A stretch of 64,000 nucleotides of DNA from Candidatus Adlerbacteria bacterium (GTDB lineage: Bacteria; Patescibacteriota; Minisyncoccia; Phycocordibacterales; SBAW01). The first letter of the stretch is position 1. Each line of letters opens with the position of its first letter. The stretch spans positions 77,621-141,620 of the forward strand of contig JARIGK010000004.1 of NCBI GenBank assembly GCA_029288895.1, in the 5' to 3' direction. The notes beneath the pieces are model-generated. The model was not told where the DNA came from and searched no databases. It saw only the letters and a list, made by a program, of their open reading frames with translations. Of the stretch, positions 3,286-49,576 are shown piece by piece. The translations under genes and the position numbers were made by a program.

Positions 3286-3322
3286 AAGCCGCCCCTTTCT
3301 CGGGGGCGGCCTTTTCTTTTTA
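3286..3322 (+). terminator. rho-independent terminator (gccgcccc-tttctc-gggggcggc + T-run)
   Basis: Perfect GC stem followed by 'cttttcttttt' immediately after the 2820..3275 stop. Confidence 0.7.
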
Positions 3323-3323
3323 G

Positions 3324-4180
3324 TTAGCTGCGTTTCTTGAGCCGGAATGGGTCGGCGGGGTAGATACCTAAAATTCGTACTTCTTCTGAAAAATACTTCA
3401 AATCGGCAAGCGCATGCTGCATGAGAGGTTCTTCAGGGTGAGCCATGGCTTCCGCGTAAAATTCGGCTGTTTGGAAGTCGCCATTTACGTAGCTTTCAAG
3501 TTTTATAAGGTTAACGCCCGTTGTAGCAAAGCCGCCAAGTGCTTTAAAGAGCGCGCCTGGGGTGTTACGGACCTTAAAAAATAAGCTGGTAATAGTTGGT
3601 TTGCCTTTGTGTGACGCGCGAGGTTGTTTTGCAATCACAATAAAGCGAGTTGTGTTGCCTTTTTGGTCGGCAATATTTTTGGCAAGTATATCCAGGCCGT
3701 AGAGCTTGGCTGCAAGCGGGGAAGCGACCGCTGCTATATGTTTTTCGCCACTTTCTGACAATGCAAGTGCTGCTCCGGCGGTGTCGTCGACCACAACTGG
3801 CTTTATATGATGAGCGCGGAAGTATGCCCGGCACTGTGCGAGTGCGTGCACGTGACTGTGCGCTTCACGAATGTCGGGCAGTTTTGTACCGCGTACGGCT
3901 AGCAAACAGTGCTCGATAGGTTGGAAATGTTCGCCAATAATATGCGTGCCGCTTGTTGGCAAAATGCGATGCACGTCGGCAACGCGACCTGCAATAGAAT
4001 TGTCAATCGGAATAACCGCATATGCTGCTTTGCCATTGCGAACGGCCAAGAAGGCATCTTCAAACATGGCGCACGGGAGAGTTGTGTGGCCAGGGAAGAG
4101 TGCGCGCGCCGCTAAGTCGGAATACGCGCCATGTTCTCCTTGGAAGGCAATCAGGAAAGTCTTTTCTGCCTTTGTAGACA
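3324..4180 (-). CDS. pheA: prephenate dehydratase (PDT + ACT domains)
   Basis: 'TFLIAFQGEHGAYSDLAA...' is a PDT domain and the C-terminal ACT domain contains 'FKVRNTPGALFKALGGFA'. Start chosen at Met 4180 (MSTKAEK); the ORF track extends to 4253 through unlikely N-terminal residues. Confidence 0.85.
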
Positions 4181-13520: not shown

Positions 13521-14297
13521 GTGAAGCGGGATATGCGGCTCTATATAACGGTAGGTGCAGGGCTTATAGCCTCGGGGCTTTTGGCATGGGCCTCCTTCTA
13601 TATATATACGGGGAAGGGGTGGCTCGTACTTGAGCGCAAAGAAACCGTGGCGGATTTTTACTTTAACCGCGGCCTCTACTATTTTAACGGCAAAGCCTAT
13701 AACCTTTCTGTTGCAGAACATGCATTTGAGCAGGCGCTGGCGCACGCCGGTGGCCCATACCCATACGCGCACTACGAGCTTGGCCGCATCTATTTTATCC
13801 ATGGCAATTTCTCGTCTGCGTTGGCAGAAATGGATATGGAGCTTGGGGCATACCCCGACCACGCAAAAGCCCACTATATGAAAGGTCTCATCTATGGGTA
13901 TCGAAAACAATACATCCAGGCCGAGCACGAGTTTATTGCGTTTAATGCGGCCGTGCCACGGCAGTGGGCTGGATACAACGATTTGGCGTGGGTTTATTTC
14001 TCTGAAGGTGCGTATGCCGATTCAGCACGTGCTGCACAACAAGGGCTTGCTGTCGTACCGGGTAACCCCTGGCTCCAAAATTCGTACGCAGTTGCAGAAC
14101 TTAACCTGGGTAAGTACAAAGAGGCAGAACTATATTTCACAAAATCGTATGATGCATTTATGGCGATGAGCGAAGAAGAGTGGGGACGGTCATACCCAGG
14201 GAACGATCCTGCACAATACGCATCAGGGCTCGAGCAGATTCGTACTGCTGTTGCGCACAACCTTACGCTTGTCCACAGTAAACTCGGGGAACAGTAG
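13521..14297 (+). CDS. membrane-anchored TPR-repeat protein
   Basis: N-terminal TM helix 'LYITVGAGLIASGLLAWASFYIY' followed by TPR-like repeats (multiple 'A..Y..G..Y...G.Y..A' blocks). Confidence 0.55.
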   Translation: MKRDMRLYITVGAGLIASGLLAWASFYIYTGKGWLVLERKETVADFYFNRGLYYFNGKAYNLSVAEHAFEQALAHAGGPYPYAHYELGRIYFIHGNFSSALAEMDMELGAYPDHAKAHYMKGLIYGYRKQYIQAEHEFIAFNAAVPRQWAGYNDLAWVYFSEGAYADSARAAQQGLAVVPGNPWLQNSYAVAELNLGKYKEAELYFTKSYDAFMAMSEEEWGRSYPGNDPAQYASGLEQIRTAVAHNLTLVHSKLGEQ

Positions 14298-25765: not shown

Positions 25766-25802
25766 AAACAAAAAGGCGACCACAGGGGTCGCCTTTACTG
25801 TA
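25766..25802 (-). terminator. terminator of rpmB (read on minus strand: ggcgaccc-ctgt-ggtcgcc + TTTTTGTTTTTT)
   Basis: Hairpin followed on the minus strand by a long T-run. Confidence 0.7.
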
Positions 25803-30998: not shown

Positions 30999-32006
30999 AT
31001 GAAGAAATTAACCGCGGCGCTTTTTGCTTTATTGGTATTGATATCTGCATCTCCCGTATCGGCAAATAGTTACATTGCTCCAACCTCGTGTCCGCAATTT
31101 TCTGTAAATCTCTACATGGGTGCGCGTGATGCGGCCATGGGTGGGCAGGTGAGCCAACTCCAGCAATTTCTCAATCAGCGTTATGGCAACCAGCTTGTCA
31201 CCGGCTACTTTGGTGTGATGACCGCGGCGAATGTATCGCGCTTGCAGCAAGAGCTCGGTATTGCTCGCGTGGGCGGCGTGGGCCCTCTGACGCGCGCAGC
31301 AATCGCAAAACTTTGCAGCACAAGCGGTACGCCCACGCCGACAGCAGGCAGCCTCTCTGCGTACCCATCGTCGGGCACGGCACCTTTGGCTGTGAACTTT
31401 ACCGCGACTGTACCGGACACGAACCAATACATCATCGACTTTGGTGATGGTGCGAACAGCGGCCCTATTGGTGCAGGCGTCGTGGCACACACATACCAAA
31501 ACCCTGGCACGTACACCGCGAACCTCTCGCGCTATATCTCGTGCCTCTACGCGACACCAGTGCACTGCATGATCGCCGTGATGCCGATTGCGTCAGCGAC
31601 GGTCACTGTTGCGGCACCTCAAACACAAACAAATACGCTCCAAGTCACAAGCCCTGCGGCGGGGCAGATATATACACGCGGCAGCCAGATGAACATCAGC
31701 TGGAGCGGCCTCGTGCGCGAAACATTTGCCTACGAGCCACATGCAAGCATTGTCGACCTCTACACGGCAGCAGGTACTAAAGTGGGTACCATCGCAATCA
31801 CGAATGATTTGAAAGGTAGCTATGACTGGCATATCCCTGGCTTTCCGCAAACTATGATGTGCACGATGCAATATCCAAATGCACTCTGCGGCACCAATGT
31901 GCAGGGCCAGTACTACATCCAAGTCACCGCGGTTGTGGGCAATGGCTTTGGCACAAACGAAACAGTCATTGGTACAGCGCAAAGCGGCGTCTTCGGAGTT
32001 CAATAA
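30999..32006 (+). CDS. secreted protein: signal peptide + peptidoglycan-binding (PG_binding_1) + PKD domain
   Basis: Signal peptide 'MKKLTAALFALLVLISASPVSA'. 'QLQQFLNQRYGNQLVTGYFGVMTAANVSRLQQELGIARVGGVGPLTRAAI' is PGBD-like. 'PLAVNFTATV...IIDFGDG...HTYQNPGTYTANLS' is a PKD domain. Confidence 0.65.
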   Translation: MKKLTAALFALLVLISASPVSANSYIAPTSCPQFSVNLYMGARDAAMGGQVSQLQQFLNQRYGNQLVTGYFGVMTAANVSRLQQELGIARVGGVGPLTRAAIAKLCSTSGTPTPTAGSLSAYPSSGTAPLAVNFTATVPDTNQYIIDFGDGANSGPIGAGVVAHTYQNPGTYTANLSRYISCLYATPVHCMIAVMPIASATVTVAAPQTQTNTLQVTSPAAGQIYTRGSQMNISWSGLVRETFAYEPHASIVDLYTAAGTKVGTIAITNDLKGSYDWHIPGFPQTMMCTMQYPNALCGTNVQGQYYIQVTAVVGNGFGTNETVIGTAQSGVFGVQ

Positions 32007-32065
32007 ACAAAAAAGATATCCCCACACACCGCTTGTCGGAAGCGGGGAAGAGAATACACTAGTAA

Positions 32066-32112
32066 GTAACAGGGCATCCCGGAAACGGGAGGCCCTTTCT
32101 CTTTTATTTTTG
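32066..32112 (+). terminator. rho-independent terminator (gggcatcccg-gaaa-cgggaggccc + tttctcttttatttttg)
   Basis: Strong GC hairpin followed by a long T-rich tract. Confidence 0.7.
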
Positions 32113-32125
32113 TAACTTTCTATCG

Positions 32126-34120
32126 ATGGAAAAATTCGCACGTGCACTCGAACTCGCAACCGCCTACTTCGCAGTAGGCGTGTTGATGGTGCTGGTCGCA
32201 GGCACCGCCGTGCCGCCTTCAGGCGCGCCGTTTGCTGCAGCCGCAGTGGCGGGATGTACGCCTCCATCATTTTCGAACCTCACTATCACCGCAGCCAATT
32301 TGTATACGCCCTGGAGTGTGCCGCTCTTGTCGGCCATCAATGATGCGTCGTTCCCAACTGTAAGTGCCACGGGTTTGCCGCCGGGTATTACACTCAAAGA
32401 CCAGACCACCACGCTCACCACAGGCGCTGGCTCCGTGCTCCACACCTGGGTCTTGGATGGTGCGCCGACGCAGCTTGGCACCTACACCATCACGGTAACT
32501 GCGCAGAATAGCTGCGGTGGTGCGTCGACCGTTATCACACTTCCGATCAATAACACCCAGACTGCCGCGGGGACTGTCTCGTGCCCGGCGGGGTACGCGG
32601 GCGCATACCCCAACTGTGTTTCAAGCTCGGGCCCGAGTGTATCGTTTGACCAAGCATCGCTTGTGGCAACAAGTTCGACAGCGATAATTACCGGCACGTC
32701 GCGCACGTCGTCGGTAAAATTGACCGTCCAAACTCCGAACGGCATTACCTACAGTAGCGAAACTGCACCTGTCGGCGGTGGGCGCTGGACAATCGTGCTC
32801 AAAAATTTAACGAGTGGCCTCTATTCGCTCTATTTGTACGACGGCAATAATTCGCCATTGTTGCCGGGCAGCTTAACCGTTACGTTGCCCGGTGATACCA
32901 AGCCTGCGCAGAACTTTTCCAGCGGTTCTAGCGAACCGGGACAAAGTTTTACTCCGGCATCAGCGAAGGCGTCTGCGCAGGCAACAAGGACTTCAACGTT
33001 TTCATGCAGCAATATTCCTACAACGCTCAAAATAGGGAGCCGCGGAAGCACGGTGCTTGCACTGCAAAAATCACTTATCTCAATAGGCGCATTGCCGTCT
33101 GATTCAGCAACCGGCTATTTTGGCCAAGCGACAAATTCGGCGGTCGCACGCCTGTGTCCATCAATTTCGGCAACAACCGTGCAGACGACAACAAGTTTGC
33201 CGGCATGCCCGAAAGTCGCCGTACCGCCGTGCCAGCATGGGACGCTTGTATCGCTTGGGGCCGACCAAAACCACTGCACGCTTGGTTATATGTGCCAGCA
33301 ACAGCCGGGCTCGAACTGCCCATCGGTGACCGCACCTCTGTGTTCGGGCGGGACAATAGTTTCAAGTGGCACAGACATAAATGGCTGCTCGACCGGCTAT
33401 TCGTGCCAGAAAGTGTCATGCCCCACTGTGCCGCAGCCAACCTGCGCACCAGGCCTGCGGCTTGTAACAGGCCCTGATGCAAACGGATGCGCAACCGTGT
33501 CCTACTGTATTGATGGCAACGGAAATACAACAAGCGTCACAGGCGCCTCGTCTGCCACAACAAATAATTCAACCAGCATCTTTAGTAATTTCTTTGGCGG
33601 TTTGGGCTCTATAGGTTCGTCATTTAGCAGTTACTACAGTTCAATTTTTGGTACCCAACCGACAGCAGGTGTCACCACATCGGCGGCAGGGAGTGCTGCT
33701 GCTGCAAGTAATGCGTCGCAGGCGTACACGACGCTTTCTTCGAAATATACCAACGCAACACTTACCAAGTGCACCGCTACCGATGGTAGCGTGAGTTATA
33801 CCGCAAAAGGGTTTAACAACGACGGCACAAGCTATGAAATCCAAACCTACCCCGTTGGAGTAACGCCAAGCGGCGCGTGTCAGATAACGCAATACACTGG
33901 CCCTGCAGCACTGCGTGGCAGTAATAGCATTGGAGGAACAGTGACAAGCCCAAGTAGTGGCGTGGGTGCAAGTAGCTATGGCGGCGCTGATGGAAGTACT
34001 GGCGGCACTGCCGGGGCAGACGCTTCATCCGGCAACGCAAGCGCAGCAGATGCATCAGCCGCTGCAAACGGCGACTCGAGCGGCGATGGCACAGGCGGCG
34101 GAACAGGAGGTACCTATTAG
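32126..34120 (+). CDS. large secreted/wall-associated protein with internal PG_binding_1 domain, three ~31-aa Cys-repeats and Gly/Ser/Ala-rich tail
   Basis: N-terminal hydrophobic anchor. 'STVLALQKSLISIGALPSDSATGYFGQATNSAVARL' is PGBD-like. The repeat C-P-x-V-x3-C-x2-G-x-V/L-x3-G-x-D-x-N-x-C-x2-G-Y-x-C-Q occurs three times. C-terminal 120 aa are G/S/A/D-rich. Confidence 0.6.
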   Translation: MEKFARALELATAYFAVGVLMVLVAGTAVPPSGAPFAAAAVAGCTPPSFSNLTITAANLYTPWSVPLLSAINDASFPTVSATGLPPGITLKDQTTTLTTGAGSVLHTWVLDGAPTQLGTYTITVTAQNSCGGASTVITLPINNTQTAAGTVSCPAGYAGAYPNCVSSSGPSVSFDQASLVATSSTAIITGTSRTSSVKLTVQTPNGITYSSETAPVGGGRWTIVLKNLTSGLYSLYLYDGNNSPLLPGSLTVTLPGDTKPAQNFSSGSSEPGQSFTPASAKASAQATRTSTFSCSNIPTTLKIGSRGSTVLALQKSLISIGALPSDSATGYFGQATNSAVARLCPSISATTVQTTTSLPACPKVAVPPCQHGTLVSLGADQNHCTLGYMCQQQPGSNCPSVTAPLCSGGTIVSSGTDINGCSTGYSCQKVSCPTVPQPTCAPGLRLVTGPDANGCATVSYCIDGNGNTTSVTGASSATTNNSTSIFSNFFGGLGSIGSSFSSYYSSIFGTQPTAGVTTSAAGSAAAASNASQAYTTLSSKYTNATLTKCTATDGSVSYTAKGFNNDGTSYEIQTYPVGVTPSGACQITQYTGPAALRGSNSIGGTVTSPSSGVGASSYGGADGSTGGTAGADASSGNASAADASAAANGDSSGDGTGGGTGGTY

Positions 34121-35451: not shown

Positions 35452-35490
35452 AGAAAGGCCCCGCAGAAATGCGGGGTTTTTCGTTCTTAT
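35452..35490. terminator. bidirectional terminator (aaaggccccgca-gaaa-tgcggggttttt)
   Basis: GC hairpin flanked by A- and T-runs after tuf. Confidence 0.75.
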
Positions 35491-35708
35491 ACGCAGCCCA
35501 TGGCTTTAGGAACTCGGGGCGTAAAGTCTCTGGGCTTGTGACTACGTGAGAGCCTAAGGCTCAAAACATCATAGGCGCTCAGGTTGTAGTCCTTCGCGTG
35601 CTGCCAGGCGAGCCTCTGGTCGCCCTTGTCTCGGGCTTCCTTGGCTAGCCTCATCCCATCCTGGTGTTGCTTCACGATTGCGAACTGCTTCTCAGCATTG
35701 ATATACAT
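35487..35708 (-). CDS. hypothetical small basic protein (74 aa)
   Basis: Start at Met 35708 (MYINAEKQF...) with GAGGAGG 5 nt upstream on the minus strand. The track's longer form (35747) lacks an RBS. Confidence 0.4.
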   Translation of the reverse strand: MYINAEKQFAIVKQHQDGMRLAKEARDKGDQRLAWQHAKDYNLSAYDVLSLRLSRSHKPRDFTPRVPKAMGCV

Positions 35709-35765
35709 CGCCGCCTCCTCTAATTTCCTCTGTCGCCATCCTAACACGAGAGATTTAATTTAGCG

Positions 35766-36241: not shown

Positions 36242-36267
36242 ACGACACAATCAAGTCGAAAAACAAA

Positions 36268-36296
36268 GAACCTTCCAGCAATGGGAGGTTTTTTGT
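36268..36296 (+). terminator. terminator/attenuator hairpin after rpsJ (ccttcc-agcaat-gggagg + TTTTTTGTTTG)
   Basis: 6-bp stem with one G-U pair followed by a T6 run. Unexpected inside the S10 operon. Confidence 0.5.
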
Positions 36297-36313
36297 TTGT
36301 AGCAGGGATGTAC

Positions 36314-36342
36314 TTGCTATTTTCATGAAACTATGCTATATT
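36314..36342 (+). promoter_or_regulatory. strong sigma70-type promoter TTGCTA-N17-TATATT
   Basis: TTGCTA 36314-19, TATATT 36337-42. It would drive a ~450-nt untranslated leader before rplC. Confidence 0.55.
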
Positions 36343-36348
36343 GATGAG

Positions 36349-36790
36349 GTTCGGGTGGCCCCACCGCCCGGATTTCTACCCTCACTGGGCGGCAGGTATT
36401 CTGCTGTGTTGCTCCCCACATCCCCCGGAAGCAACCCTCGAGTAGGATGCTGTCGTCCAGTGAGACCTCGTTTCGGTCTTTTTGAAATTTATTTCTACTG
36501 CAGTCTGGGAGACGCAGAGGAGGAGCTCGTCGAAGCAAGGTGGCCAGGAAACTGTCCTCTGGGCAAGTCGATAGGATTCTTTGGTACCTTGCTTTGGCGG
36601 GTTTCCCTTCTCTCAAACTACACAGTTCTTTGTTTGTTCGAGCCCTCGCCATTTGGTGAGGGTTTCTGCTTTTTGGGCTCCATACATTGGACCACCCTAT
36701 GTATTTGCATAATTTATACACCTCGTGTATAGTCTCGTGGACTCTTACATAGAGTTGATCCACGTCCCGGGCGCCAAGCCCAGAGGGACC
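36349..36790 (+). other. ~440-nt GC-rich structured untranslated region between rpsJ and rplC (candidate leader/ncRNA)
   Basis: No convincing ORF: both overlapping track ORFs are Pro/Gly/Cys-rich and run into rplC. Multiple nested GC hairpins, e.g. ccgccc...gggcgg and gagccc...gggctc (36651-36691). Confidence 0.25.
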
Positions 36791-36800
36791 ACTAGACAAC

Positions 36801-39252: not shown

Positions 39253-39262
39253 TATCAAAAAG

Positions 39263-39298
39263 AAAAATCCCCGCCCTAAGGCGGGGATTGTCGTTGTT
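39263..39298. repeat. direct repeat copy L: aaaaATCCCCGCC-ctaa-GGCGGGGATTGTCGTT (terminator-like hairpin)
   Basis: 9-bp GC stem. Apart from the loop it is identical to the copy at 39716-39749. Immediately after the rplB stop. Confidence 0.7.
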
Positions 39299-39339
39299 GT
39301 GTCGCGTGGTAGTATCGATGCGGACAAGGAGGCTTACTA

Positions 39340-39684
39340 ATGCCAATTAAATTTCTGATTGTCGCAGGCGCTACACTGCTCTTGGGCAGCTGGATTTTCT
39401 CATCGTATCGGTGGCACAATCGTTATGATCAGCTTCGAAGTCTCATGAAGTTCAACATAGGCGACCGAGTCGTTAGGATGGGGCGCGTAGACATACACAG
39501 CCCCATCGATTACACGATGGACCCGTACCTTCCGACCCGTATGGGGCAGTGTATCGATATTGCTGTGCGAAGAGCCACTGGCACGGTAGAGAAATTCAAT
39601 ATCGTGCGCTGTTCTTCCTTGTGGGACGGCGGTCCCTTCCGGAACATGACTTCGGAGGACTATCATCGACGTGTTGTGTGCTAA
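39340..39684 (+). CDS. hypothetical membrane-anchored protein (114 aa) inserted between rplB and rpsS
   Basis: AAGGAGG 8 nt upstream of the ATG. N-terminal TM 'FLIVAGATLLLGSWIFSSY'. Putative promoter TTGTCG-N16-TAGTAT (39289-39316). Followed by an agccc/gggct hairpin + TTTTTCTTTTT (39685-39711). Confidence 0.5.
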   Translation: MPIKFLIVAGATLLLGSWIFSSYRWHNRYDQLRSLMKFNIGDRVVRMGRVDIHSPIDYTMDPYLPTRMGQCIDIAVRRATGTVEKFNIVRCSSLWDGGPFRNMTSEDYHRRVVC

Positions 39685-39715
39685 AGCCCGTAGAGGGCTT
39701 TTTCTTTTTCCAAAA

Positions 39716-39751
39716 ATAAATCCCCGCCGAAAGGCGGGGATTGTCGTTAGA
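39716..39751. repeat. direct repeat copy R: aaaATCCCCGCC-gaaa-GGCGGGGATTGTCGTT
   Basis: Second copy of the rplB-proximal hairpin element. On the minus strand it is followed by 'tttatttttgg', serving as the terminator of the minus-strand gene 39747..39953. Confidence 0.7.
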
Positions 39752-39953
39752 TGCCCAAGTAATGGTTTTCGCAAAAACCTTCGTTCTCGGGAAGCTGCTT
39801 TGCAGCAATTCCTTGAATGTAGGCTTGGACGACTTCCGGCGCTGGCATATCCATGCCCCTCATGCGTGGAAACACGAGGTCGACACCTGCGTCCAGGGCA
39901 TCGACGCGCTCTTTTGCAGTGGCTTTTGAAAGTTCGACTTCACGATCGCCCAT
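39747..39953 (-). CDS. hypothetical small protein (68 aa) encoded antisense within the r-protein cluster
   Basis: GAGGAGG 6 nt upstream of the ATG on the minus strand. Preceded by a 24-codon Lys-rich micro-ORF (MNSVERAVQNTKKLLKKAKKKKKL, 39961-40035) that has its own GGAGGG RBS. Minus-strand promoter-like TTGATG-N17-TATGGT near 40100. Confidence 0.45.
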   Translation of the reverse strand: MGDREVELSKATAKERVDALDAGVDLVFPRMRGMDMPAPEVVQAYIQGIAAKQLPENEGFCENHYLGI

Positions 39954-40089
39954 CAGTTCCTCCTCTAAAGCTTTTTCTTCTTCTTGGCCTTCTTGAGAAG
40001 CTTTTTCGTGTTTTGGACAGCCCGTTCAACACTGTTCATAACACCCTCCCTCTGGTAAAGCCAATGTCCGAGATAAGAATACACCATAT

Positions 40090-40118
40090 TTGACTATTCC
40101 TGGGGCATCAAGTAGTAT
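40090..40118 (+). promoter_or_regulatory. sigma70-type promoter TTGACT-N17-TAGTAT upstream of rpsS
   Basis: TTGACT 40090-95, TAGTAT 40113-18. ~100-nt leader with hairpins before ATG 40221. Confidence 0.6.
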
Positions 40119-40220
40119 CTGTGTACTTCCGTGCCGCAAGGTCTAGCCGCTCGCTGGCTACGACGGGCAGGGAATTTAATTTTGGCAAAGTCTGCGTTAG
40201 CAGACGTCAAATATACAAGA

Positions 40221-43157: not shown

Positions 43158-43694
43158 ATGCCTAAACTCGTTAAAGAACAGCAGAAGAGTGCGTACGCAG
43201 ACCTCAAAGGTAATTTTGGGTGGACTGGCGTCATGCAAACCCCGAAGGTGGAGAAGGTTGTTATCTCTGTCGGTACTGGCTCGACCAAAGACAAGAACAA
43301 GATCAAGTTGATCGAAGGCCGTTTGGCTACCATCACTGGCCAGAAGCCGGCATACCGCATCACCAAGAAGGCAATTGCGACCTACAAGACTCGCGTTGGC
43401 GACAAAGTTGGCTATCAGGTTACGCTTCGCGGCAAGCGCGCAGAAGACTTCTTGAACCGCCTCCTCCACGTTGCGCTTCCTCGTACGAAAGACTTTAAGG
43501 GCATCCCAGGCAATTCTATCGATGACATGGGCAACTACACGCTCGGTATCAAAGAACACACCGTCTTCCCAGAAACAGCAGACGAAGAATTGAAGGACGT
43601 CTTCGGTATGGCAATCACTGTCGTCACTACTGCAAAGACTAAAGACGAAGCAAAAGCCTACCTCACACACTTGGGCTTCCCATTCAAAAAGTAA
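43158..43694 (+). CDS. rplE: 50S ribosomal protein L5
   Basis: 'LKEQQKSAYADLKGNFGWTGVMQTPKVEKVVISVGTG' uL5. Confidence 0.95.
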   Translation: MPKLVKEQQKSAYADLKGNFGWTGVMQTPKVEKVVISVGTGSTKDKNKIKLIEGRLATITGQKPAYRITKKAIATYKTRVGDKVGYQVTLRGKRAEDFLNRLLHVALPRTKDFKGIPGNSIDDMGNYTLGIKEHTVFPETADEELKDVFGMAITVVTTAKTKDEAKAYLTHLGFPFKK

Positions 43695-43710
43695 TTTTCT
43701 TACTCCTCGA

Positions 43711-43746
43711 AAAAGCGACCTCCTCACCGAGGTCGCTTTTTCTTTT
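43711..43746. terminator. cassette hairpin 1: aaaaaGCGACCTC-ctcacc-GAGGTCGC + TTTTTCTTTTG
   Basis: 8-bp stem and T-run immediately after the rplE stop. First of six hairpin+TTTTTCTTTT elements. Confidence 0.7.
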
Positions 43747-43788
43747 GGGATTGTGTATGGTTTTGAAAGTTTTACGAGAGGTGTTTAT

Positions 43789-44025
43789 ATGCCTGATGGT
43801 TCGTTGCCAGAAGTACCACCGCCTGGGAAAAAGAGATACAGGATGGTGTGTCGGGACCGTGGGGTCAATCCTTTCAAGAGTCGATCCTTTGAAATGGACA
43901 GACCCCTACAGAGACACACCAAGACTGTCGATGTGGATGAACATATCCCATTTGAGCAGGTCGAGAAGTGGGCTCGCGAAGAACAAGGGCCCTACGAGTT
44001 TCTCAAGCTTGAAGTGGTGAGTTGA
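43789..44025 (+). CDS. hypothetical protein (78 aa), cassette 1 of rplE/rpsN insertion
   Basis: GAGAGG 8 nt upstream of ATG 43789. Basic N-terminus with an acidic C-terminus. Confidence 0.45.
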   Translation: MPDGSLPEVPPPGKKRYRMVCRDRGVNPFKSRSFEMDRPLQRHTKTVDVDEHIPFEQVEKWAREEQGPYEFLKLEVVS

Positions 44026-44034
44026 ATATTGCAA

Positions 44035-44064
44035 GGCGATCCATTCGGGTCGCTTTTTCTTTTG
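44035..44064. terminator. cassette hairpin 2: GCGATCC-attc-GGGTCGC + TTTTTCTTTTG
   Basis: Same architecture as hairpin 1, with a G-U pair in the stem. Confidence 0.65.
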
Positions 44065-44137
44065 GGGTAGGGTAAGGTGGCGGCAGGCAGCGTATCGCCT
44101 GTGTTCCTTTCAACCATCAACTAAAGGGATATCTGTC

Positions 44138-44677
44138 ATGACTGCCAATACGGCACGAAACGACGGTAATAAAAAGAAGTCTAAACAAAGGCTCTCGGCT
44201 GAACAGACTGGCGTCCTCCAACAGAGGCTCCAGGATGTTATCCGCCGCGTCGAGGAGGGGAAACTTTCTTTTGACGTTGTGGCGCAATCGCTTCAGCGTA
44301 TCTCGGAAGAGACATTCATCTCTCACTACAAAGACAAAAAGCCGAAGGAGACGTGGGAGATTTTCACACGTCCGCCTCTGGCCGAGCGGAGAAAGTCGTT
44401 GTCGCCTTATGGCATGACGCTTCCGCACAAGGTCAAACGTCTTGAGTTTCCGGAACGGAATCCCGAGCGGATAATGATGGAGCTTTGGGAAAAGGAGAAT
44501 ATCCCGAAACCTCAAATAAATCACGGTCGTGTACCGGTCAACGCCATCCTTAACGCCGTTGAACTGCTGCCCCAGGATGTGCAGATTGTGGCCGCGACCG
44601 TCCAATGGTTTGGGACAAATATTGGTATGTCCTACCTTGGCGAATTTTCCCGAGCGGCAGAATTGCGGGGTTTCTAA
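44138..44677 (+). CDS. hypothetical protein (179 aa), cassette 2
   Basis: AAGGGA upstream. Basic N-terminus (KKKSKQR). No recognisable domain. Confidence 0.45.
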   Translation: MTANTARNDGNKKKSKQRLSAEQTGVLQQRLQDVIRRVEEGKLSFDVVAQSLQRISEETFISHYKDKKPKETWEIFTRPPLAERRKSLSPYGMTLPHKVKRLEFPERNPERIMMELWEKENIPKPQINHGRVPVNAILNAVELLPQDVQIVAATVQWFGTNIGMSYLGEFSRAAELRGF

Positions 44678-44689
44678 AACAATGTACAT

Positions 44690-44721
44690 TGGCGACCCAT
44701 TCGGGTCGCTTTTTCTTTTGA
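44690..44721. terminator. cassette hairpin 3: GCGACCC-attc-GGGTCGC + TTTTTCTTTTG (preceded by 12-bp palindrome caatgtacattg)
   Basis: Near-identical to hairpin 2. The palindrome lies at 44681-44692. Confidence 0.7.
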
Positions 44722-44779
44722 TGACAAGGATGGTTAGATGGTTTATGCTCGTGCCAGGCACATTTTGGAGGAATAGAAC

Positions 44780-45295
44780 ATGCCGGAGAAGAGAATTCTG
44801 CAGTTGGTCGGCTCATGCGGCGAATGCCCGCGCTATCAGTATTACAGTGGCGGAACGAGTAAGTGCATCGAAGTCGACCAGATTGTTCGCGACAAGCATG
44901 TCGTTGCGCCGTTCTGCCCGCTGGCGCCGTATCCTGCGGACATTATTGCCGATCAGGCCGAGACAATTCGGGTCATGCGGGAAGGGAACGATACGCTGTT
45001 CGTCTTCCTTCTTCTGGAGCGCATTGGCAAAAAGCTTAATGCAATCCGCAAGGATGGGACTATGGTGCTCGAAATTCCGCTGAAGGAAGAAGGCAAAACT
45101 GTTTGCCTCGATCTCCACTATGTGGACGAGGAAAGGAGTCGGCTATTTCCTCGCCCAGAAATTCGCTTCAAGTATCAGGACTCGTGGTACATCCTGGACA
45201 TCGAGGCGAAGCCGCCGATTCTCAAAAAGGTGGTTAGACATCCGGGCGGCAGCGAAGCTGGAGAATTGTACGAGTCTGTCCCGCTGGCAGTCTGA
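44780..45295 (+). CDS. hypothetical protein (171 aa) with N-terminal Cys cluster, cassette 3
   Basis: GGAGGA 7 nt upstream. 'CGECPRY...C...C' is a possible Zn-binding N-terminus. Confidence 0.45.
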   Translation: MPEKRILQLVGSCGECPRYQYYSGGTSKCIEVDQIVRDKHVVAPFCPLAPYPADIIADQAETIRVMREGNDTLFVFLLLERIGKKLNAIRKDGTMVLEIPLKEEGKTVCLDLHYVDEERSRLFPRPEIRFKYQDSWYILDIEAKPPILKKVVRHPGGSEAGELYESVPLAV

Positions 45296-45300
45296 CAAAC

Positions 45301-45333
45301 AAGCGACCTTTGAGAGGGTCGCTTTTTCTTTTG
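45301..45333. terminator. cassette hairpin 4: GCGACC-tttgaga-GGGTCGC + TTTTTCTTTTG, fused to promoter TTGACA-N16-TAGTAT (45331-45358)
   Basis: The T-run of the terminator runs directly into a consensus -35 TTGACA. TAGTAT at 45353-58. Confidence 0.7.
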
Positions 45334-45389
45334 ACAAAACGTGCACTGCAAGTAGTATGTGCAGCGGATTCACAAAACAGGAGAAGCTC

Positions 45390-46022
45390 ATGCTGAGCGT
45401 AGAACAAAGGTTTCTTGGTGCCTACAAGGGCGCACTTTTAGAAGCCATCATGCAAGAGGATTCGAAATTCGTACTGGATGCCAAGATCGAATCGCTGTAT
45501 GACTGGCTCAATCTGATGAATTGGGGCAATGTTGAAACTTGCCGCGAGACAGCCTCGCTCATCGAGTTGCCCATTTTATTTTCGTTCCGGTTCCAGCGTA
45601 ACCCTGCGGCGCGTATACGCTTCACTCGGCATCAATTCCGTGATTGCTCGACGGAAGTGCAGCGTGATGCGCACGATTTAGCACTGTTGCGCAGTGCCTA
45701 TCTCGCTGAGTTGCTCTATGGAAAGGGTGAAGAGGAGGCGGTCAGCTTCGTTCTCCGTCAATACGATACGGACTTCCTTTTTACCCGCTCCATCAAGGAG
45801 CTGGAAGAGCGCGCTCCATTACTCGACCTTTCGGGGTTAAAAACACCTCGTACTTGCAAACTGTACATAGAAACGAAGATGTTCAGTGGCGCGTGTTATG
45901 GAGCTGTGCACGGACCCGACTACCTGCATCTTGCCCGGTGGCAAGAAGGCCGCATCGAACACAACCCTTTAGTGAAAGAGGTTGGCCTGAGGCTTTTCAG
46001 GGAAGCGTACGGATACACATAG
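45390..46022 (+). CDS. hypothetical protein (210 aa), cassette 4
   Basis: AGGAGA 6 nt upstream of ATG 45390. The track's longer version (45120) overlaps cassette 3 and crosses hairpin 4, so it is rejected. Confidence 0.45.
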   Translation: MLSVEQRFLGAYKGALLEAIMQEDSKFVLDAKIESLYDWLNLMNWGNVETCRETASLIELPILFSFRFQRNPAARIRFTRHQFRDCSTEVQRDAHDLALLRSAYLAELLYGKGEEEAVSFVLRQYDTDFLFTRSIKELEERAPLLDLSGLKTPRTCKLYIETKMFSGACYGAVHGPDYLHLARWQEGRIEHNPLVKEVGLRLFREAYGYT

Positions 46023-46029
46023 CAGTTCT

Positions 46030-46063
46030 TAAGCGACCCACCCGGGCCGCTTTTTTCTTTTTA
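46030..46063. terminator. cassette hairpin 5: GCGACCC-acc-cGGGCCGC + TTTTTTCTTTTT
   Basis: Imperfect version of the same element, with one mismatch. Confidence 0.55.
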
Positions 46064-46216
46064 TAAAATATGGGGCTGGTGGTAGGGGATTATTGATATT
46101 TTTGAAAAATGTGTTAAAAAAGCTGCAGCTGATGGTAGTGGCATTCCGCCATATCCACTGACAGCTCTTTGTCGTCCAGCCTACCCTGTGCCAATGACGG
46201 GGATGGTTATAGCGCA

Positions 46217-46891
46217 ATGGAGAAACTAATGCGTGCTGTGTCTCGTGACCAAGCGACTAATCTTATTGGGCGTATTGCAACGACTATAAATTTTGGACCT
46301 CTGGATTCCCAATTCGTCCAAAAGGCAATCATCGAAGGCCTCGACGACGAGGAATTCGGTGACAACGTCACCAGCTTTCTCAAGAATGGGGCCAAAAGAG
46401 TCATCGCCCTTCCGAAATCTCTGGACATCAACCATCATCTACGTCCGGAAAACGTAGACCAGGTGTCGCAACTCTGGAAAGGTCCGTTTCCGAGCGATGG
46501 GACTCGAGGTAATGTAGTGGACCACCTTCCAGACTTGCAATCCCTGGAATTTTCCAGAGTTGCCTTTAGTCGTCCAAAAGGGAGCCAGCTCGCTGCTGGT
46601 CATATCTACCAGGAATTAGTGGGGCAAGTGCCGCTCCTTGGCTTTCGGGTAGGGATGGCGCTTATGCGGGACTATAAAGAGCGTGGCAAAGATTCTGCGC
46701 TTGAGTGGTATCGTGCTACCTACGACATTCGGGACATGACATTCATGGGCACAGTCCTGCGCCGACCAAGTGACGGGTACCCATTCTTTTATGGCCTGCA
46801 GCATATAAATAGTGTGTGGGATTGGGGTTCCGTGGGGCTTTGGGATCTCACGTTTTCGGAGCAGGAGGCTATACCTATTTACGTCCCCTAG
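46217..46891 (+). CDS. hypothetical protein (~225 aa), cassette 5
   Basis: Start 46217 or 46229, the latter with GGAGA 6 nt upstream. No recognisable domain. Confidence 0.42.
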   Translation: MEKLMRAVSRDQATNLIGRIATTINFGPLDSQFVQKAIIEGLDDEEFGDNVTSFLKNGAKRVIALPKSLDINHHLRPENVDQVSQLWKGPFPSDGTRGNVVDHLPDLQSLEFSRVAFSRPKGSQLAAGHIYQELVGQVPLLGFRVGMALMRDYKERGKDSALEWYRATYDIRDMTFMGTVLRRPSDGYPFFYGLQHINSVWDWGSVGLWDLTFSEQEAIPIYVP

Positions 46892-46904
46892 AGCTGGGGT
46901 TTGT

Positions 46905-46940
46905 TCGGGCCCGCGGTAAAACGCGGGCCTTTTTTCTTTG
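46905..46940. terminator. cassette hairpin 6: GGCCCGCG-gtaaaa-CGCGGGCC + TTTTTTCTTTG
   Basis: 8-bp GC stem and T-run immediately after the cassette 5 stop. Confidence 0.7.
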
Positions 46941-46942
46941 GT

Positions 46943-46971
46943 TTGACTTATAGGGTGGGGTCGAGTATATT
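46943..46971 (+). promoter_or_regulatory. sigma70-type promoter TTGACT-N17-TATATT upstream of rpsN, followed by short leader hairpin agccc-gttt-gggct + T7 (46979-47000)
   Basis: TTGACT 46943-48, TATATT 46966-71. The attenuator-like hairpin sits right at the predicted 5' end of the transcript. Confidence 0.6.
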
Positions 46972-47083
46972 GATGCCTAGCCCGTTTGGGCTCCTTTTTT
47001 TCGTCAGGTGCCGCTTAGTCGCAAGGCGAGGCAAACCCACGAGATCATAACTCCCTAGGTATAAGGGGAGTAACCATTCAAAA

Positions 47084-47269
47084 ATGGCAAAAAAATCTAC
47101 AATCGCACGCTCTAACAAGACCCCGAAGTTTAAGTCTCGGGTAGTTCGCCGTTGCTTCCGCTGCGGCCGCAAGCGCGCCTTTATGCGTGATTTCGGCATG
47201 TGCCGCGCATGCTTCCGCGAAGCTGCTAACGAAGGCCTTATCCCTGGCGTCCGCAAATCATCTTGGTAA
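47084..47269 (+). CDS. rpsN: 30S ribosomal protein S14 type Z (zinc-binding)
   Basis: 61 aa with '[23 protein letters not shown]' C4 zinc motif. Confidence 0.95.
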
Positions 47270-48525: not shown

Positions 48526-49119
48526 ATGGCTGAAAACGAAAACACACAGGTAATAGAAACCACAGAAGCTGCAGCGCCTGCTGCAGATGCTTCGAGCGCG
48601 CCTCGCAATGACCGCGGTCCTCGCGGCCGTGGTGGCCGTGGAGGCGACCGTGGTGGCCGCCGCCCGTCGTCGCGCCCTCCTCGCCCGAAAAGCGAGTTCG
48701 ATCAGCGCATGATCAACATCCGCCGCGTCGCCCGCGTCGTTGCCGGTGGCCGCCGCTTCTCATTCTCAGTTGCGATTATCATCGGCAACAAGAAGGGCAA
48801 AGTTGGCGTAGGCTTGGGCAAAGCAGGGGACACCACCTTGGCAATCGACAAGGCAGTCCGCGATGCAAAGAAGAACATGATCACCGTATCGCTCACCAAA
48901 GACAACTCAATCGCACACGAAGTGTCGGCAAAGTACAACGCAGCACGCGTGACCATGATGCCAGCACACGGCCGCGGGTTGGTCGCAGGCTCATCAGTTC
49001 GCCCAGTGCTCGAGCTTGCTGGTGTCACTAACATCGTCGCAAAGATCCACTCTGGCTCGAAGAATGGTTTGAACAACGCACGCGCAGCAGTCGAAGCGCT
49101 CAAGAACCTCAAGGCGTAA
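48526..49119 (+). CDS. rpsE: 30S ribosomal protein S5 (with Arg/Gly-rich N-terminal extension)
   Basis: 'INIRRVARVVAGGRRFSFSVAIIIGNKKGKVGVGLGKA' uS5 dsRBD-like domain. Confidence 0.94.
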   Translation: MAENENTQVIETTEAAAPAADASSAPRNDRGPRGRGGRGGDRGGRRPSSRPPRPKSEFDQRMINIRRVARVVAGGRRFSFSVAIIIGNKKGKVGVGLGKAGDTTLAIDKAVRDAKKNMITVSLTKDNSIAHEVSAKYNAARVTMMPAHGRGLVAGSSVRPVLELAGVTNIVAKIHSGSKNGLNNARAAVEALKNLKA

Positions 49120-49132
49120 TCTCTAACACTAT

Positions 49133-49576
49133 ATGCAGCTCCACGAACTCAAACGCAAAACAGAAAACAAGACCGCAAAGCGCGTCGGTCGCGGCGGTGG
49201 CCGTGGTAAGACCTCGGGCCGCGGTACCAAGGGTCAGAACGCACGTTCAGGCCACAAGAAGCGCCCAGAAATCCGCGAAATCTTGAAGAAGCTTCCAAAG
49301 CGTCGCGGTCGCGGTATCGCGGGCCTCGTCTCTATCCAGAGCAAGCCGCTTGTCGTAAACATCTCGTCGCTCGAAGTCGCATTCAAGGCAGGTGATGTTG
49401 TAAACCCAACAACCCTCCTCGAGCGTGGCCTTATCCGCGCACGTAAAGGCGACGCAACTCCAAAGGTAAAAATTTTGGGCAATGGTGAAATCACCAAAAA
49501 GCTCACATTCTCGGGTGTTGTTATCTCGGGCTCTGCAAAGGAAAAGATAGAAAAAGCGGGCGGTTCGGTAGCGTAA
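49133..49576 (+). CDS. rplO: 50S ribosomal protein L15
   Basis: 'LKRKTENKTAKRVGRGGGRGKTSGRGTKGQ' uL15. It follows rpsE directly, with no L30 gene. Confidence 0.93.
   Translation: MQLHELKRKTENKTAKRVGRGGGRGKTSGRGTKGQNARSGHKKRPEIREILKKLPKRRGRGIAGLVSIQSKPLVVNISSLEVAFKAGDVVNPTTLLERGLIRARKGDATPKVKILGNGEITKKLTFSGVVISGSAKEKIEKAGGSVA

Follow-up and report, generated by a model that had tools for sequence, protein, structure and literature searches.

A variable five-gene array with related terminator-like hairpins at the expanded rplE-rpsN junction of a Paceibacteria ribosomal protein cluster

The str-S10-spc ribosomal protein cluster of a Patescibacteria (Candidate Phyla Radiation, CPR) genome lies within the 64-kb stretch of DNA that was analysed here (the window, W), and its genes rplE and rpsN are separated by an array of five small genes, c1 to c5, each followed by a terminator-like hairpin. 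The array is best described as occupying an inter-unit 'safe harbour' of a rewired cluster, found clade-wide, and not as an integron-like mobile system inserted in an intact operon. On balance, we read it as a lineage-specific accessory gene island that was built by recombination in an ancestral gap between ribosomal transcription units. The main interest lies in the clade-wide architecture of three breaks with three uncatalogued leaders, together with repeat-flanked insertions that come without mobility genes.

The nearest RplE sequences (<=81% identity) belong to metagenome-assembled genomes (MAGs) labelled Candidatus Paceibacterota, Adlerbacteria or Parcubacteria, and 80 Paceibacteria loci whose RplE is 58-81% identical to that of W were used as relatives; labels of the type L003 denote these related loci and other contigs compared. 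Twenty-two proteins of the cluster were placed on the 80 loci and every junction was measured, with 37-67 loci scored per open junction. Three of the 21 junctions are expanded in the majority of scored loci:

rpsJ to rplC: median 549 bp; >300 bp in 25/37 loci; maximum 3803 bp
rplB to rpsS: median 1038 bp; >300 bp in 46/50 loci; maximum 6892 bp
rplE to rpsN: median 1226 bp; >300 bp in 57/67 loci; range 26-9429 bp

The remaining 18 junctions have medians of <=80 bp, and the canonical S10|spc boundary (rpsQ to rplN) is closed (median 9 bp). The smallest rplE-rpsN gaps were found in L049 (26 bp) and L030 (83 bp). The original prediction started from the adjacency of rplE and rpsN, a premise which holds for bacteria in general and not for this clade. 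High conservation of the cluster is known from Gammaproteobacteria and Bacilli, where most of the insertions that were analysed fall between classical operons and one falls inside the rpoBC operon (PMC8046335). No published description of interrupted ribosomal protein operons in CPR was found in literature searches.

Each open junction in the clade is bounded by a conserved terminator and by a conserved promoter with a structured leader. When the three gaps of W were compared with those of the relatives at DNA level, only the boundaries aligned (73-96%; in W the blocks 43696-43761, 46931-47083, 40088-40190 and 36700-36800), and the interiors were unique. Judged from this pattern, the cluster is predicted to form four units in the clade, i.e. 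rpsJ, rplC-rplB, rpsS-rplE and rpsN-secY. The promoter ahead of rpsN is kept even where the gap is 83 bp (L030), and therefore the variable DNA is placed between units and the junction is taken as an ancestral boundary; the claim that an intact operon had been invaded is abandoned. The most conserved bacterial gene cluster would hence be organised differently in a large CPR clade, as four units with three fixed open junctions. The two elements that lead into rpsN are:

46943-46971 (+): predicted rpsN promoter, TTGACT-N17-TATATT, 10/12 consensus match, in most relatives including L030 with its 83-bp gap
46977-47083 (+): rpsN leader with a 5' hairpin and U-run, a long-range helix, an inner helix and a hairpin that sequesters the Shine-Dalgarno (SD) sequence, in at least 20 relatives

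The clade consensus before rpsN reads TTGACTT-N-GTATATT and is followed by a leader of about 105 nt (also in L002-L037), so the predicted restart of the downstream genes from TTGACT-N17-TATATT stands as a promoter conserved across the clade. In the leader, the long-range helix is UUCUGU/ACAGAA and the inner helix covaries from GCC/GGC to UCU/GGA; compensatory changes affect 7 of the 20 pairs predicted in the consensus fold. A leader precedes rpsS as well (W 40088-40220; CTTCCGTGCCGCAAGG...GGGCAGGG, with visible covariation in L002, L013, L018 and L027), and another precedes rplC (W 36700-36800; GTTGATCCACGTCCC-stem-GGGACCAATAGACAACATG). The rpsN leader matched no Rfam family even at E <= 1, and the rpsS and rplC leader blocks had no Rfam match at the gathering threshold, at which the whole window was searched; over the array, Rfam at E <= 1 gave only sub-threshold small-RNA matches, which fall on terminator T6 (see below). 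The rpsN leader is probably autoregulatory, a candidate for a new element of ribosomal-protein control whose likely ligand would be S8 or S14. The spc operon of E. coli is autoregulated by S8, at rplE. Both cases have a structured RNA upstream of a spc gene block that includes rpsH, and here too the RNA could be bound by a protein encoded in the block; the leader described here differs in its position before rpsN instead of rplE, in sequence and structure, and in having no Rfam match. All three leaders could turn out to be new RNAs through which ribosomal proteins regulate their own synthesis, in organisms whose ribosomes are reduced; known leaders of ribosomal protein genes are surveyed in PMC3616713.

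The rplE-rpsN gap of W measures 3,389 bp (rplE stop 43694, rpsN start 47084), and its five open reading frames (ORFs) are all on the + strand. The genes of this segment are:

43158-43694 (+): rplE (uL5), last gene of the predicted rpsS-rplE transcription unit, identified from ORF and translation
43789-44025 (+): c1, 78 aa, hydrophilic, pI 6.7, SD sequence gagagg
44138-44677 (+): c2, 179 aa, pI 9.7
44780-45295 (+): c3, 171 aa, four invariant cysteines (C13, C16, C29, C46)
45390-46022 (+): c4, 210 aa, all-alpha model with ADP-ribosylglycohydrolase-like fold, oldest recognisable gap resident
46229-46891 (+): c5, 220 aa, strict orphan, coding-like GC1/2/3 of 0.61/0.39/0.53
47084-47269 (+): rpsN (uS14, 61-aa zinc type), first gene of the next predicted unit, 97-98% identical in the closest relatives

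The array as originally reported is real: the five same-strand ORFs lie between rplE and rpsN, their proteins show no pairwise similarity at E <= 1e-3, and an SD sequence was found ahead of all five, in agreement with the ribosome-binding sites claimed. Of the reported sizes (78-225 aa), those of c1-c4 match the deposited gene calls on one 298-kb NCBI contig, but the 225 aa of c5 had been counted from an upstream ATG; the best start is at 46229, which has a GGAGAA SD sequence, agrees with the deposited call and gives 220 aa. The cargo proteins are hydrophilic (pI 5.7-9.7), without long hydrophobic stretches, and their ORFs have GC1 > GC2 < GC3 as in real genes. Their codon adaptation index (CAI) is 0.51-0.64 compared with 0.59-0.87 for core genes, and the GC content of the array is 0.507 compared with 0.53 in the flanks. 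An assembly artefact was ruled out, as the same architecture is found in independent MAGs.

A hairpin starts 5-15 nt past the stop codon of rplE and of each of c1-c5 (6/6). The hairpins T1-T6 (43709-43742, 44033-44056, 44691-44710, 45301-45324, 46031-46052 and 46907-46930) have folding energies of -23.4, -14.0, -15.0, -14.1, -10.8 and -20.8 kcal/mol, respectively, with z-scores of -2.6 to -5.2 relative to shuffled sequence; the two outer hairpins, T1 and T6, are clearly the strongest. A U-tract of the form T5-6 C T3-4 adjoins the 3' side of all six stems, and each of the six shows the features of an intrinsic terminator, i.e. a GC stem of about 5-14 bp, a loop of 3-8 nt and a U-tract after a stop codon. 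With their tails, they are:

43709-43746 (+): T1, rplE terminator, GAAAAAGCGACCTC-CTCACC-GAGGTCGCTTTTTC plus tail, z -5.2, conserved left boundary of the variable region
44033-44064 (+): T2, GGCGATCC-ATTC-GGGTCGC TTTTTCTTTTG, reference copy of the 30-nt repeat family
44691-44720 (+): T3, GGCGACCC-ATTC-GGGTCGC TTTTTCTTTTG, 97% identical to T2, resembles the module after the L003 c2 homolog
45301-45333 (+): T4, AAGCGACCTT-TGAG-AGGGTCGCTT TTTCTTTTG, runs into the promoter-like TTGACA-N16-TAGTAT (45331-45358)
46031-46062 (+): T5, GCGACCC-ACCC-GGGCCGC with an A.C mismatch, TTTTTTCTTTT, near-identical to the module after the L003 c4 homolog
46907-46940 (+): T6, GGGCCCGCG-GTAAAA-CGCGGGCC TTTTTTCTTTGG, different stem, predicted right-hand insulator before the rpsN promoter

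It had been proposed that the same element follows each ORF. This is correct for the hairpin with its tail, six times over, but copy 6 (46907) has another stem, GGGCCCGCG, and only its tail in common with the other array copies, and copy 5 carries the A.C mismatch. In relatives, a terminator GGGCGGCC...GGCCGCC TTTTCTTTTG occupies the position of T6, directly before the promoter. The tail was also said to run into a -35-like hexamer each time, but a consensus scan gave promoter-like sites in only three of the six spacers (44721, 45331 and 46943). The 16-mer GGTCGCTTTTTCTTTT occurs in four exact copies in the window, in the array only; nine matches were found with <=3 mismatches where 1.06 were expected, and a repeat search recovered five copies of a 30-nt unit, of which those at 44035 and 44691 are 97% identical.

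The tail TTTTTCTTTT is the genome's ordinary terminator tail; the form T(3-6)-C-T(3-5) also follows about 9 of the 23 other terminator-like hairpins in the window (e.g. 3288, 20812, 22210, 27962 and 39266). A single C at a fixed place in the U-tract (TTTT(T)CTTTT), often with a G after it, was observed in many terminators of this genome and its relatives, with strong examples in W at 3288, 20812, 22210, 27962, 35459 and 39266; the C-interrupted U-tract is a lineage-typical terminator signature. The stem is another matter: an opening GCG[AG][CT]C is found in 5/6 array hairpins versus 1/23 others in the window. The sole such stem outside the array in W belongs to the terminator of the L28 gene (rpmB; 25772-25796, - strand, GGCGACC...GGTCGCC) and has a different tail.

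A composite motif (stem, loop, stem and tail) was counted in the window and the 80 related loci (1.33 Mb in total). All 20 occurrences lie inside rplE-rpsN gaps, which make up 9.5% of this sequence, and the other two variable junctions (117 kb) have none; 18 of the 20 are in W, L001, L003, L004, L005 and L008, and the remaining two represent one palindromic site in the more distant L072. Scans of metagenome and viral sequences with AAAAGAAAAAN{0,2}GCGRCCN{3,12}GGYCGC returned more than 120 and 35 loci, respectively, on unrelated contigs, nearly all of them with a single copy and none with an rplE, rpsN or cargo homolog; L091 has two copies, which represent a duplicated gene end in a 56%-GC organism. 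Since single copies are scattered over unrelated contigs in this way, one hairpin copy means nothing, and the signal is the clustering at the locus. On these counts the GCGRYC stem with its tail appears to be a locus-specific module and not a generic terminator. The special punctuation that had been proposed is accordingly confined to the combination of stem and tail, and the opposite possibility, that the hairpin is simply the generic terminator of the genome, applies to the tail and not to the stem.

The terminators that follow c4 are alike in different lineages: W has GCGACCCACCCGGGCCGC and L003 has GCGACCCATCCGGGCCGC, both with the same A.C mismatch, L236 has GCGGCCC...GGGCCGC, and L240 has GCGGTCGAAGG...CCTTCGACCGC. 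The rplE terminator GAAAAAGCGACC(TC)...(GA)GGTCGCTTTTT is common to W, L004, L005 and L008, with 81-87% DNA identity to L004 and L008. Because terminators after orthologous genes resemble each other, the module family is old and tied to this locus; its conservation is about equal to that of the promoter and leader (84-87% identity).

The genes carried at the junction differ between relatives, so that the description as variable cargo stands. Clade-wide, the gaps contain two-component systems, Pif1 helicases, ABC transporters, sigma factors, Cas1, glycosyltransferases and a 1,704-aa surface protein, and 325 of 365 clusters of gap ORFs are singletons. The closest subclade has the same design as W, i.e. 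small orphan ORFs on the + strand, often with a TTGACA/TTGCAA promoter-like start, each followed by a GCGRYC-type hairpin with a T5CT4 tail; this design was seen with other genes in L003, L001, L005, L008 and L236. Such open junctions may rank among the main landing pads for new genes in small, dense CPR genomes, and anyone who bins CPR MAGs, annotates them by synteny or uses ribosomal proteins in phylogenomics has to reckon with variable islands within a block of marker genes. Homologs were found for four of the five cargo genes (c1-c4), all inside the rplE-rpsN gap of relatives and none elsewhere:

c1: L004 gap, 38-41% identity
c2: L003 gap, 28% identity over the C-terminal half (E 5e-7), directly upstream of the c4 homolog
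c3: L001 gap, 34-37% identity
c4: L003 gap, 44% identity
c4: L236-L239 gap, 48% identity, the only cargo gene there
c4: L240 gap, 25-28% identity, first of seven genes

In the protein collection c1 is a singleton, and a HMMER pass over 1.84 billion representative proteins yielded no further full-length relative of c4, the extra matches being one 64-aa fragment and one weak repeat match in a 4,212-aa protein; c5 matched only itself among 5.8 billion proteins and had no tblastn match in the 80 relatives. In the same pairs of genomes the identity is 75-98% for core proteins (SecY 87-90%, EF-Tu 91-93%) and 28-44% for cargo proteins, and hence the cargo evolves far faster than the core. Invariant motif residues are nevertheless kept in c1, c3 and c4 (four cysteines in c3), and these three are therefore regarded as constrained proteins and not as noise. 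Their distribution suggests that c1-c4 are old, fast-evolving residents of the gap, which speaks against the original interpretation. Relatives do carry subsets of the same genes at this junction, but patchily and with extreme divergence, so that the refuting case named in the original prediction, conserved core genes with ordinary divergence, applies by half. Gene order varies as well: c2 and c4 homologs are adjacent in L003 with one module between them, and the c3 unit stands between c2 and c4 in W.

This picture could also arise by plain vertical inheritance, in which old accessory genes were lost differentially and diverged rapidly, with terminators that are orthologous, gene-converted or co-selected. 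The presence of c4 in this gap in five lineages (25-48% identity to c4 of W; 60% between L003 and L236), the orthology of the terminators after orthologous genes, the closeness of the GC content to that of the flanks, the lack of mobility genes, and the frequency of single hairpins of this type in unrelated organisms, which makes convergence cheap, are all in its favour. The 325 singletons among the 365 clusters and a c5 without relatives would, however, demand many independent gains or extreme divergence; gap lengths lie anywhere between 26 bp and 9.4 kb, and Cas1, two-component systems and 1,700-aa surface proteins are among the dissimilar contents; and single genes are flanked by long direct repeats that take in non-structural sequence, as with the 53-nt repeat of L003 and, in both L022 and L023, the 3' end of rplE. 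As the repeats extend beyond the hairpin and flank single genes, they point to duplicative insertion events, and we consider purely vertical inheritance unlikely.

An exact 53-nt direct repeat in L003, which comprises the 3' stem arm, the tail and promoter-like sequence, lies on both sides of the c2 homolog, and a 30-nt direct repeat (97%) flanks an inserted unit in the W array. The other two expanded junctions of W are:

39253-40220: second hot spot, rplB|rpsS, with an ORF at 39340-39684 that has its own terminator, and a predicted promoter plus leader at 40088-40190
36242-36800: third hot spot, rpsJ|rplC, with about 460 bp unique to W between a terminator and a predicted promoter plus leader (36700-36800)

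The ORF at 39340-39684 of the second hot spot (b1; + strand, 114 aa) is flanked by two copies of the rplB-side boundary hairpin AAATCCCCGCC-nnnn-GGCGGGGATTGTCGTT, which form a 37-nt direct repeat (89%; 39259-39295 and 39712-39748). The rplB-side boundary hairpin is duplicated in L003 too, 436 nt apart, and b1 had no tblastn match in that locus. Small ORFs on the - strand follow b1 in W, at about 39745-40040. Exact direct repeats of >=20 nt numbered 22 in 243 kb of gaps versus 18 in the other 1,014 kb, i.e. they are about 5-fold denser in gaps, and none occurred in shuffled gaps. Several gap repeats bracket single genes. L022 (24 nt) and L023 (47 nt, 92%) repeat the 3' end of rplE, L007 repeats about 70 nt that comprise a terminator and the sequence on either side, and L068 and L008 repeat a terminator together with the -35 region of the promoter. 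These repeat-flanked units suggest homology-based gain and loss. Because the repeat may be any boundary sequence and is not always the hairpin, short-homology (Campbell-type) integration and excision is favoured over a hairpin-specific recombinase. Single genes between boundary repeats would offer a handle on gene acquisition without obvious mobile elements.

No recombinase was found in the cargo of W or in repeat-flanked ORFs, and no integrase or transposase in or beside the W array or any related array examined. Gap ORFs matched 60 Pfam families, and the 25 commonest of these include no recombinase family; the mobile cassette system envisaged by the original prediction is not borne out. Integration at a tRNA gene was rejected, as neither tRNA nor tmRNA genes were present in the window or in 28 relatives. 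Spread by a Y1 transposase or of REP type was rejected for this region of the genome, since a tblastn search with the L236 protein detected no Y1 transposase in the window. Genes for IS200/RAYT-type Y1 transposases were observed in the rplB-rpsS gap of L236 (1452-2215; also L237) and of L038 (3568-4265), flanked by their own, different palindromes (AATGTGCGACTCCCGGGAGTCGCACATT); by their position there, true mobile elements also use these junctions.

Capture of the integron kind, in which the hairpin modules would be att-type sites, read perhaps as folded single strands by a recombinase encoded elsewhere, and circular cassettes would be inserted at the boundary hairpin, is the core of the original prediction and quite unlikely in our view. 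It would account for unrelated ORFs of one orientation that are each followed by a related imperfect palindrome, for a module that is locus-specific across six genomes, and for hairpin-containing direct repeats around single genes at two different hot spots. The A.C mismatch and the near-identical loops shared by W and L003 are far better conserved than the proteins; c3, which lies between c2 and c4 in W, is absent from L003, where the junction resembles a hybrid of the left part of T3 and the right part of T4; and the c4 distances are discordant with those of the core genes (60% for L003-L236 and 44% for W-L003, although W and L003 are the much closer pair). Yet no integrase accompanies any array and the flanks are always ribosomal protein genes, no recombinase appears among the 25 commonest gap-ORF families or in repeat-flanked ORFs, and the elements are 20-34 nt long, far below the size of attC, without a consistent GTTRRRY core. 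A GC stem, a short loop, a U-run and a position 5-15 nt past a stop codon are all explained by termination. Recognisable homologs of the cargo families occur at one locus only, with no sign of a circulating cassette pool, and the repeat in L022 and L023 is the coding end of rplE, which argues against recognition of the hairpin.

For an accessory island in an inter-unit gap, we propose the following course. The rplE unit would end at the strong terminator T1, and the rpsN unit would restart from its own promoter and a probably autoregulatory leader, with a space between the two units that tolerates extra DNA. In W this space would have been filled by five 'moron-like' units on the same strand, each consisting of an SD sequence, an ORF and an intrinsic terminator, some with a promoter-like site. 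The internal terminators would be paralogs derived from a single module, about 30 nt long and made up of a GCGRYC...GRYCGC hairpin and a T5-C-T4 tail, which is related to the rplE terminator and to a c4-associated terminator that would predate the split of the lineages. Recombination that uses or duplicates boundary sequences of 24-70 nt would gain, lose and shuffle genes without a self-encoded recombinase, and would leave each inserted unit between direct repeats. The weaker internal terminators (-11 to -15 kcal/mol) would probably let some rplE read-through reach the cargo, and the strong outer terminators (-21 and -23 kcal/mol) would shield the ribosomal units.

Several points weigh against this proposal. 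Termination, read-through and promoter use are predictions from sequence, with promoter-like sites in only three of six spacers. Repeats of 24-70 nt are short for RecA-dependent recombination, and the frequent presence of hairpins within the repeats would also fit a structure-specific enzyme acting in trans. Exact-protein look-ups of RplE, RpsN, RpsL, RpsH, RplN and c4 found no strain-level relatives on record, and therefore no recent gain or loss event was caught; differential loss from a larger ancestral array, without any insertion, could explain the patchiness. For this genome, the census of modules and recombinases spans 64 kb of the 298-kb contig, and the structural assignment of c4 comes from a model of moderate confidence (pLDDT 69, 4-sequence alignment) in which the metal motifs of its presumed family are not evident.

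Searches of Pfam, PHROGs, PADLOC and NCBIfam gave no credible match for any cargo protein, and sequence searches of the PDB with c2, c3, c4 and c5 gave none. The statement that no cargo protein is recognisable therefore stands for family libraries but not for structure, since c4 models with an ADP-ribosylglycohydrolase (ARH)-like fold. Its AlphaFold model is all-alpha (pTM 0.73) and matches the all-alpha fold of the ARH/DraG family (PF03747), and weak matches of c4 in a viral fold library point to the same fold; the single-sequence model of c3 was unusable (pLDDT 42). By sequence profile c4 lies outside the family (no Pfam, NCBIfam or PDB match), and its hhalign probability against a bona fide ARH of L240 was 1.3%. 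ARHs carry a C-terminal Asp/Thr metal motif; the acidic di-metal-binding motifs are not evident in c4, in which, by eye, only one acidic residue persists at this C-terminal site, and the protein is about 80-100 residues shorter than typical ARHs. Among the conserved residues of c4 are a His-Asp pair (HD, residues 100-101) and an acidic residue (E/D) on the N-terminal side of a GAxxGAxxG motif. The protein may be a divergent or inactive ARH. In L240 (GCA_964829305.1, 6001-12333), the c4 homolog in the rplE-rpsN gap is followed by six more genes, among them those for a DUF350 protein and for the bona fide ADP-ribosylglycohydrolase, which is weakly Tri1-like, so that two ARH-fold proteins share one gap.

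The likeliest role of the cargo would be in conflict or immunity, e.g. against ADP-ribosylating toxins, whose action would be reversed or blocked. Fast-evolving orphan families that are restricted to one locus, one of them ARH-like, would be plausible players in host-symbiont or phage conflict. A role as lineage-specific ribosomal proteins was judged unlikely, given the terminators of their own, the pI of 5.7-6.7 in four of five and the very poor conservation. Phage origin was rejected, with no PHROG matches and an insignificant viral fold search. That the units are selfish or de novo modules, i.e. addiction-like genes or young ORFs in a spacer transcribed by read-through and kept by their position, is the least probable of the explanations weighed here. 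Orphan status, small size, low codon adaptation (CAI of 0.51-0.64 vs 0.59-0.87) and fast evolution would agree with it, as would the weaker internal terminators and the highly expressed unit upstream; against this, no defence or toxin-antitoxin model was matched in PADLOC, Pfam or NCBIfam, the paired small-gene layout typical of toxin-antitoxin systems is lacking, motif residues are conserved in c1, c3 and c4 across 25-48% identity, c4 has a defined ancient fold, and the strong T1 should limit read-through. A more far-reaching model combines structure and function: the hairpins would double as recombination sites of an integrase-less gene-capture platform at the three break points of the cluster in Paceibacteria, operated by a recombinase in trans or by a transformation-linked single-strand mechanism that duplicates the boundary hairpin. 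The platform would collect fast-evolving genes of the immunity type, the ARH-like c4 among them, by which these episymbionts would be protected from toxins, ADP-ribosylating ones included. We hold this to be slightly less probable than integron-like capture as such.

The array was compared with known systems of modular gene gain, of which phage morons and integrase-less cassette arrays come closest. The phage 'moron' concept of Hendrix and colleagues reportedly denotes independent transcription units between two genes that are adjacent in related phages. Similar features here are a small gene with a factor-independent terminator (5/5), sometimes a promoter (promoter-like sites in 3/6 spacers), a position between genes that are near-adjacent in some relatives (26 bp in L049 and 83 bp in L030), mostly obscure functions and variable presence. 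Unlike in morons, the host is a bacterial ribosomal protein cluster, PHROG matches are absent, five tandem units have a common paralogous terminator module, the composition barely differs from that of the host (GC 0.507 vs 0.53), and recognisable homologs are confined to the locus and appear to have been inherited over long periods. Integron arrays and clusters of attC sites lacking integrases (CALINs) likewise consist of unrelated, mostly small ORFs that point the same way, and an imperfect inverted repeat from one family follows each of them; their content varies between relatives. Here, in contrast, there is neither IntI nor attI, and the array is headed by rplE and ended by rpsN (the same in L003, L001, L236 and L240); the repeats are 20-34 nt long with a U-run, and terminator-like, compared with roughly 57-141 nt for attC; GTTRRRY follows only two of five cargo ORFs, at inconsistent positions; and promoter-like sites accompany some units, unlike integron cassettes, most of which lack a promoter.

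Cis-mobilisable elements (CIMEs) can accrete in tandem at a gene's 3' end, with att direct repeats between them. The units at this locus are also separated by direct repeats, which in L022 and L023 are the 3' end of the upstream rplE, but they are single-gene units of 0.3-1.2 kb and no integrative element or integrase is known for them. REP/REPIN-RAYT and IS200/IS605 systems differ by their Y1 transposase, which is absent from the window, and by the confinement of the present module to one locus in 1.33 Mb. The rAID-1 arrays of orphan immunity genes in Bacteroidales have a conserved XerD-family recombinase and a skewed GC content (bioRxiv 10.1101/471110); neither was seen here, and no cargo protein matches a known immunity family by sequence. 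Hot spots of horizontal transfer between core genes resemble the present case in having a variable island between conserved genes that can anchor recombination, and in that a junction once opened tends to stay variable. The present case differs in the clade-wide opening of three junctions that belong to the interior of the canonical S10 and spc operons (compare PMC8046335). The array departs from the defining features of morons, integrase-less cassette arrays, rAID-1 and horizontal-transfer hot spots alike.

Other observations concern the remaining variable DNA of the cluster and its neighbourhood. In the rpsJ-rplC gap of W, about 460 bp (36242-36700) aligned to none of the 80 related loci; the gap contains a terminator at 36272, a promoter-like site at 36314-36342 and a second terminator at 36640-36665, with no convincing ORF and no Rfam match, and the unique stretch could represent a lineage-specific small RNA or a decayed gene. 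In L003, a tRNA-like sequence (13548-13615) with an acceptor-like stem and a perfect T-arm (GGTTCGAGTCC), but without a proper D-arm, lies between the last cassette terminator and the rpsN promoter; it was not called by ARAGORN, and the 37 nt preceding it are common to L005 (about 3340-3376).

In W, the rpmD gene for L30 is missing between rpsE and rplO, which are direct neighbours (49119-49133); absence of L30 is a recognised feature of the CPR. The str/S10 region of W is interrupted at further places. An ORF for 86 aa is located on the - strand between tuf and rpsJ (35487-35747). Between fusA and tuf (30999-34120), a gene for a 335-aa protein with a signal-peptide-like N-terminus and a gene for a 664-aa protein are found.

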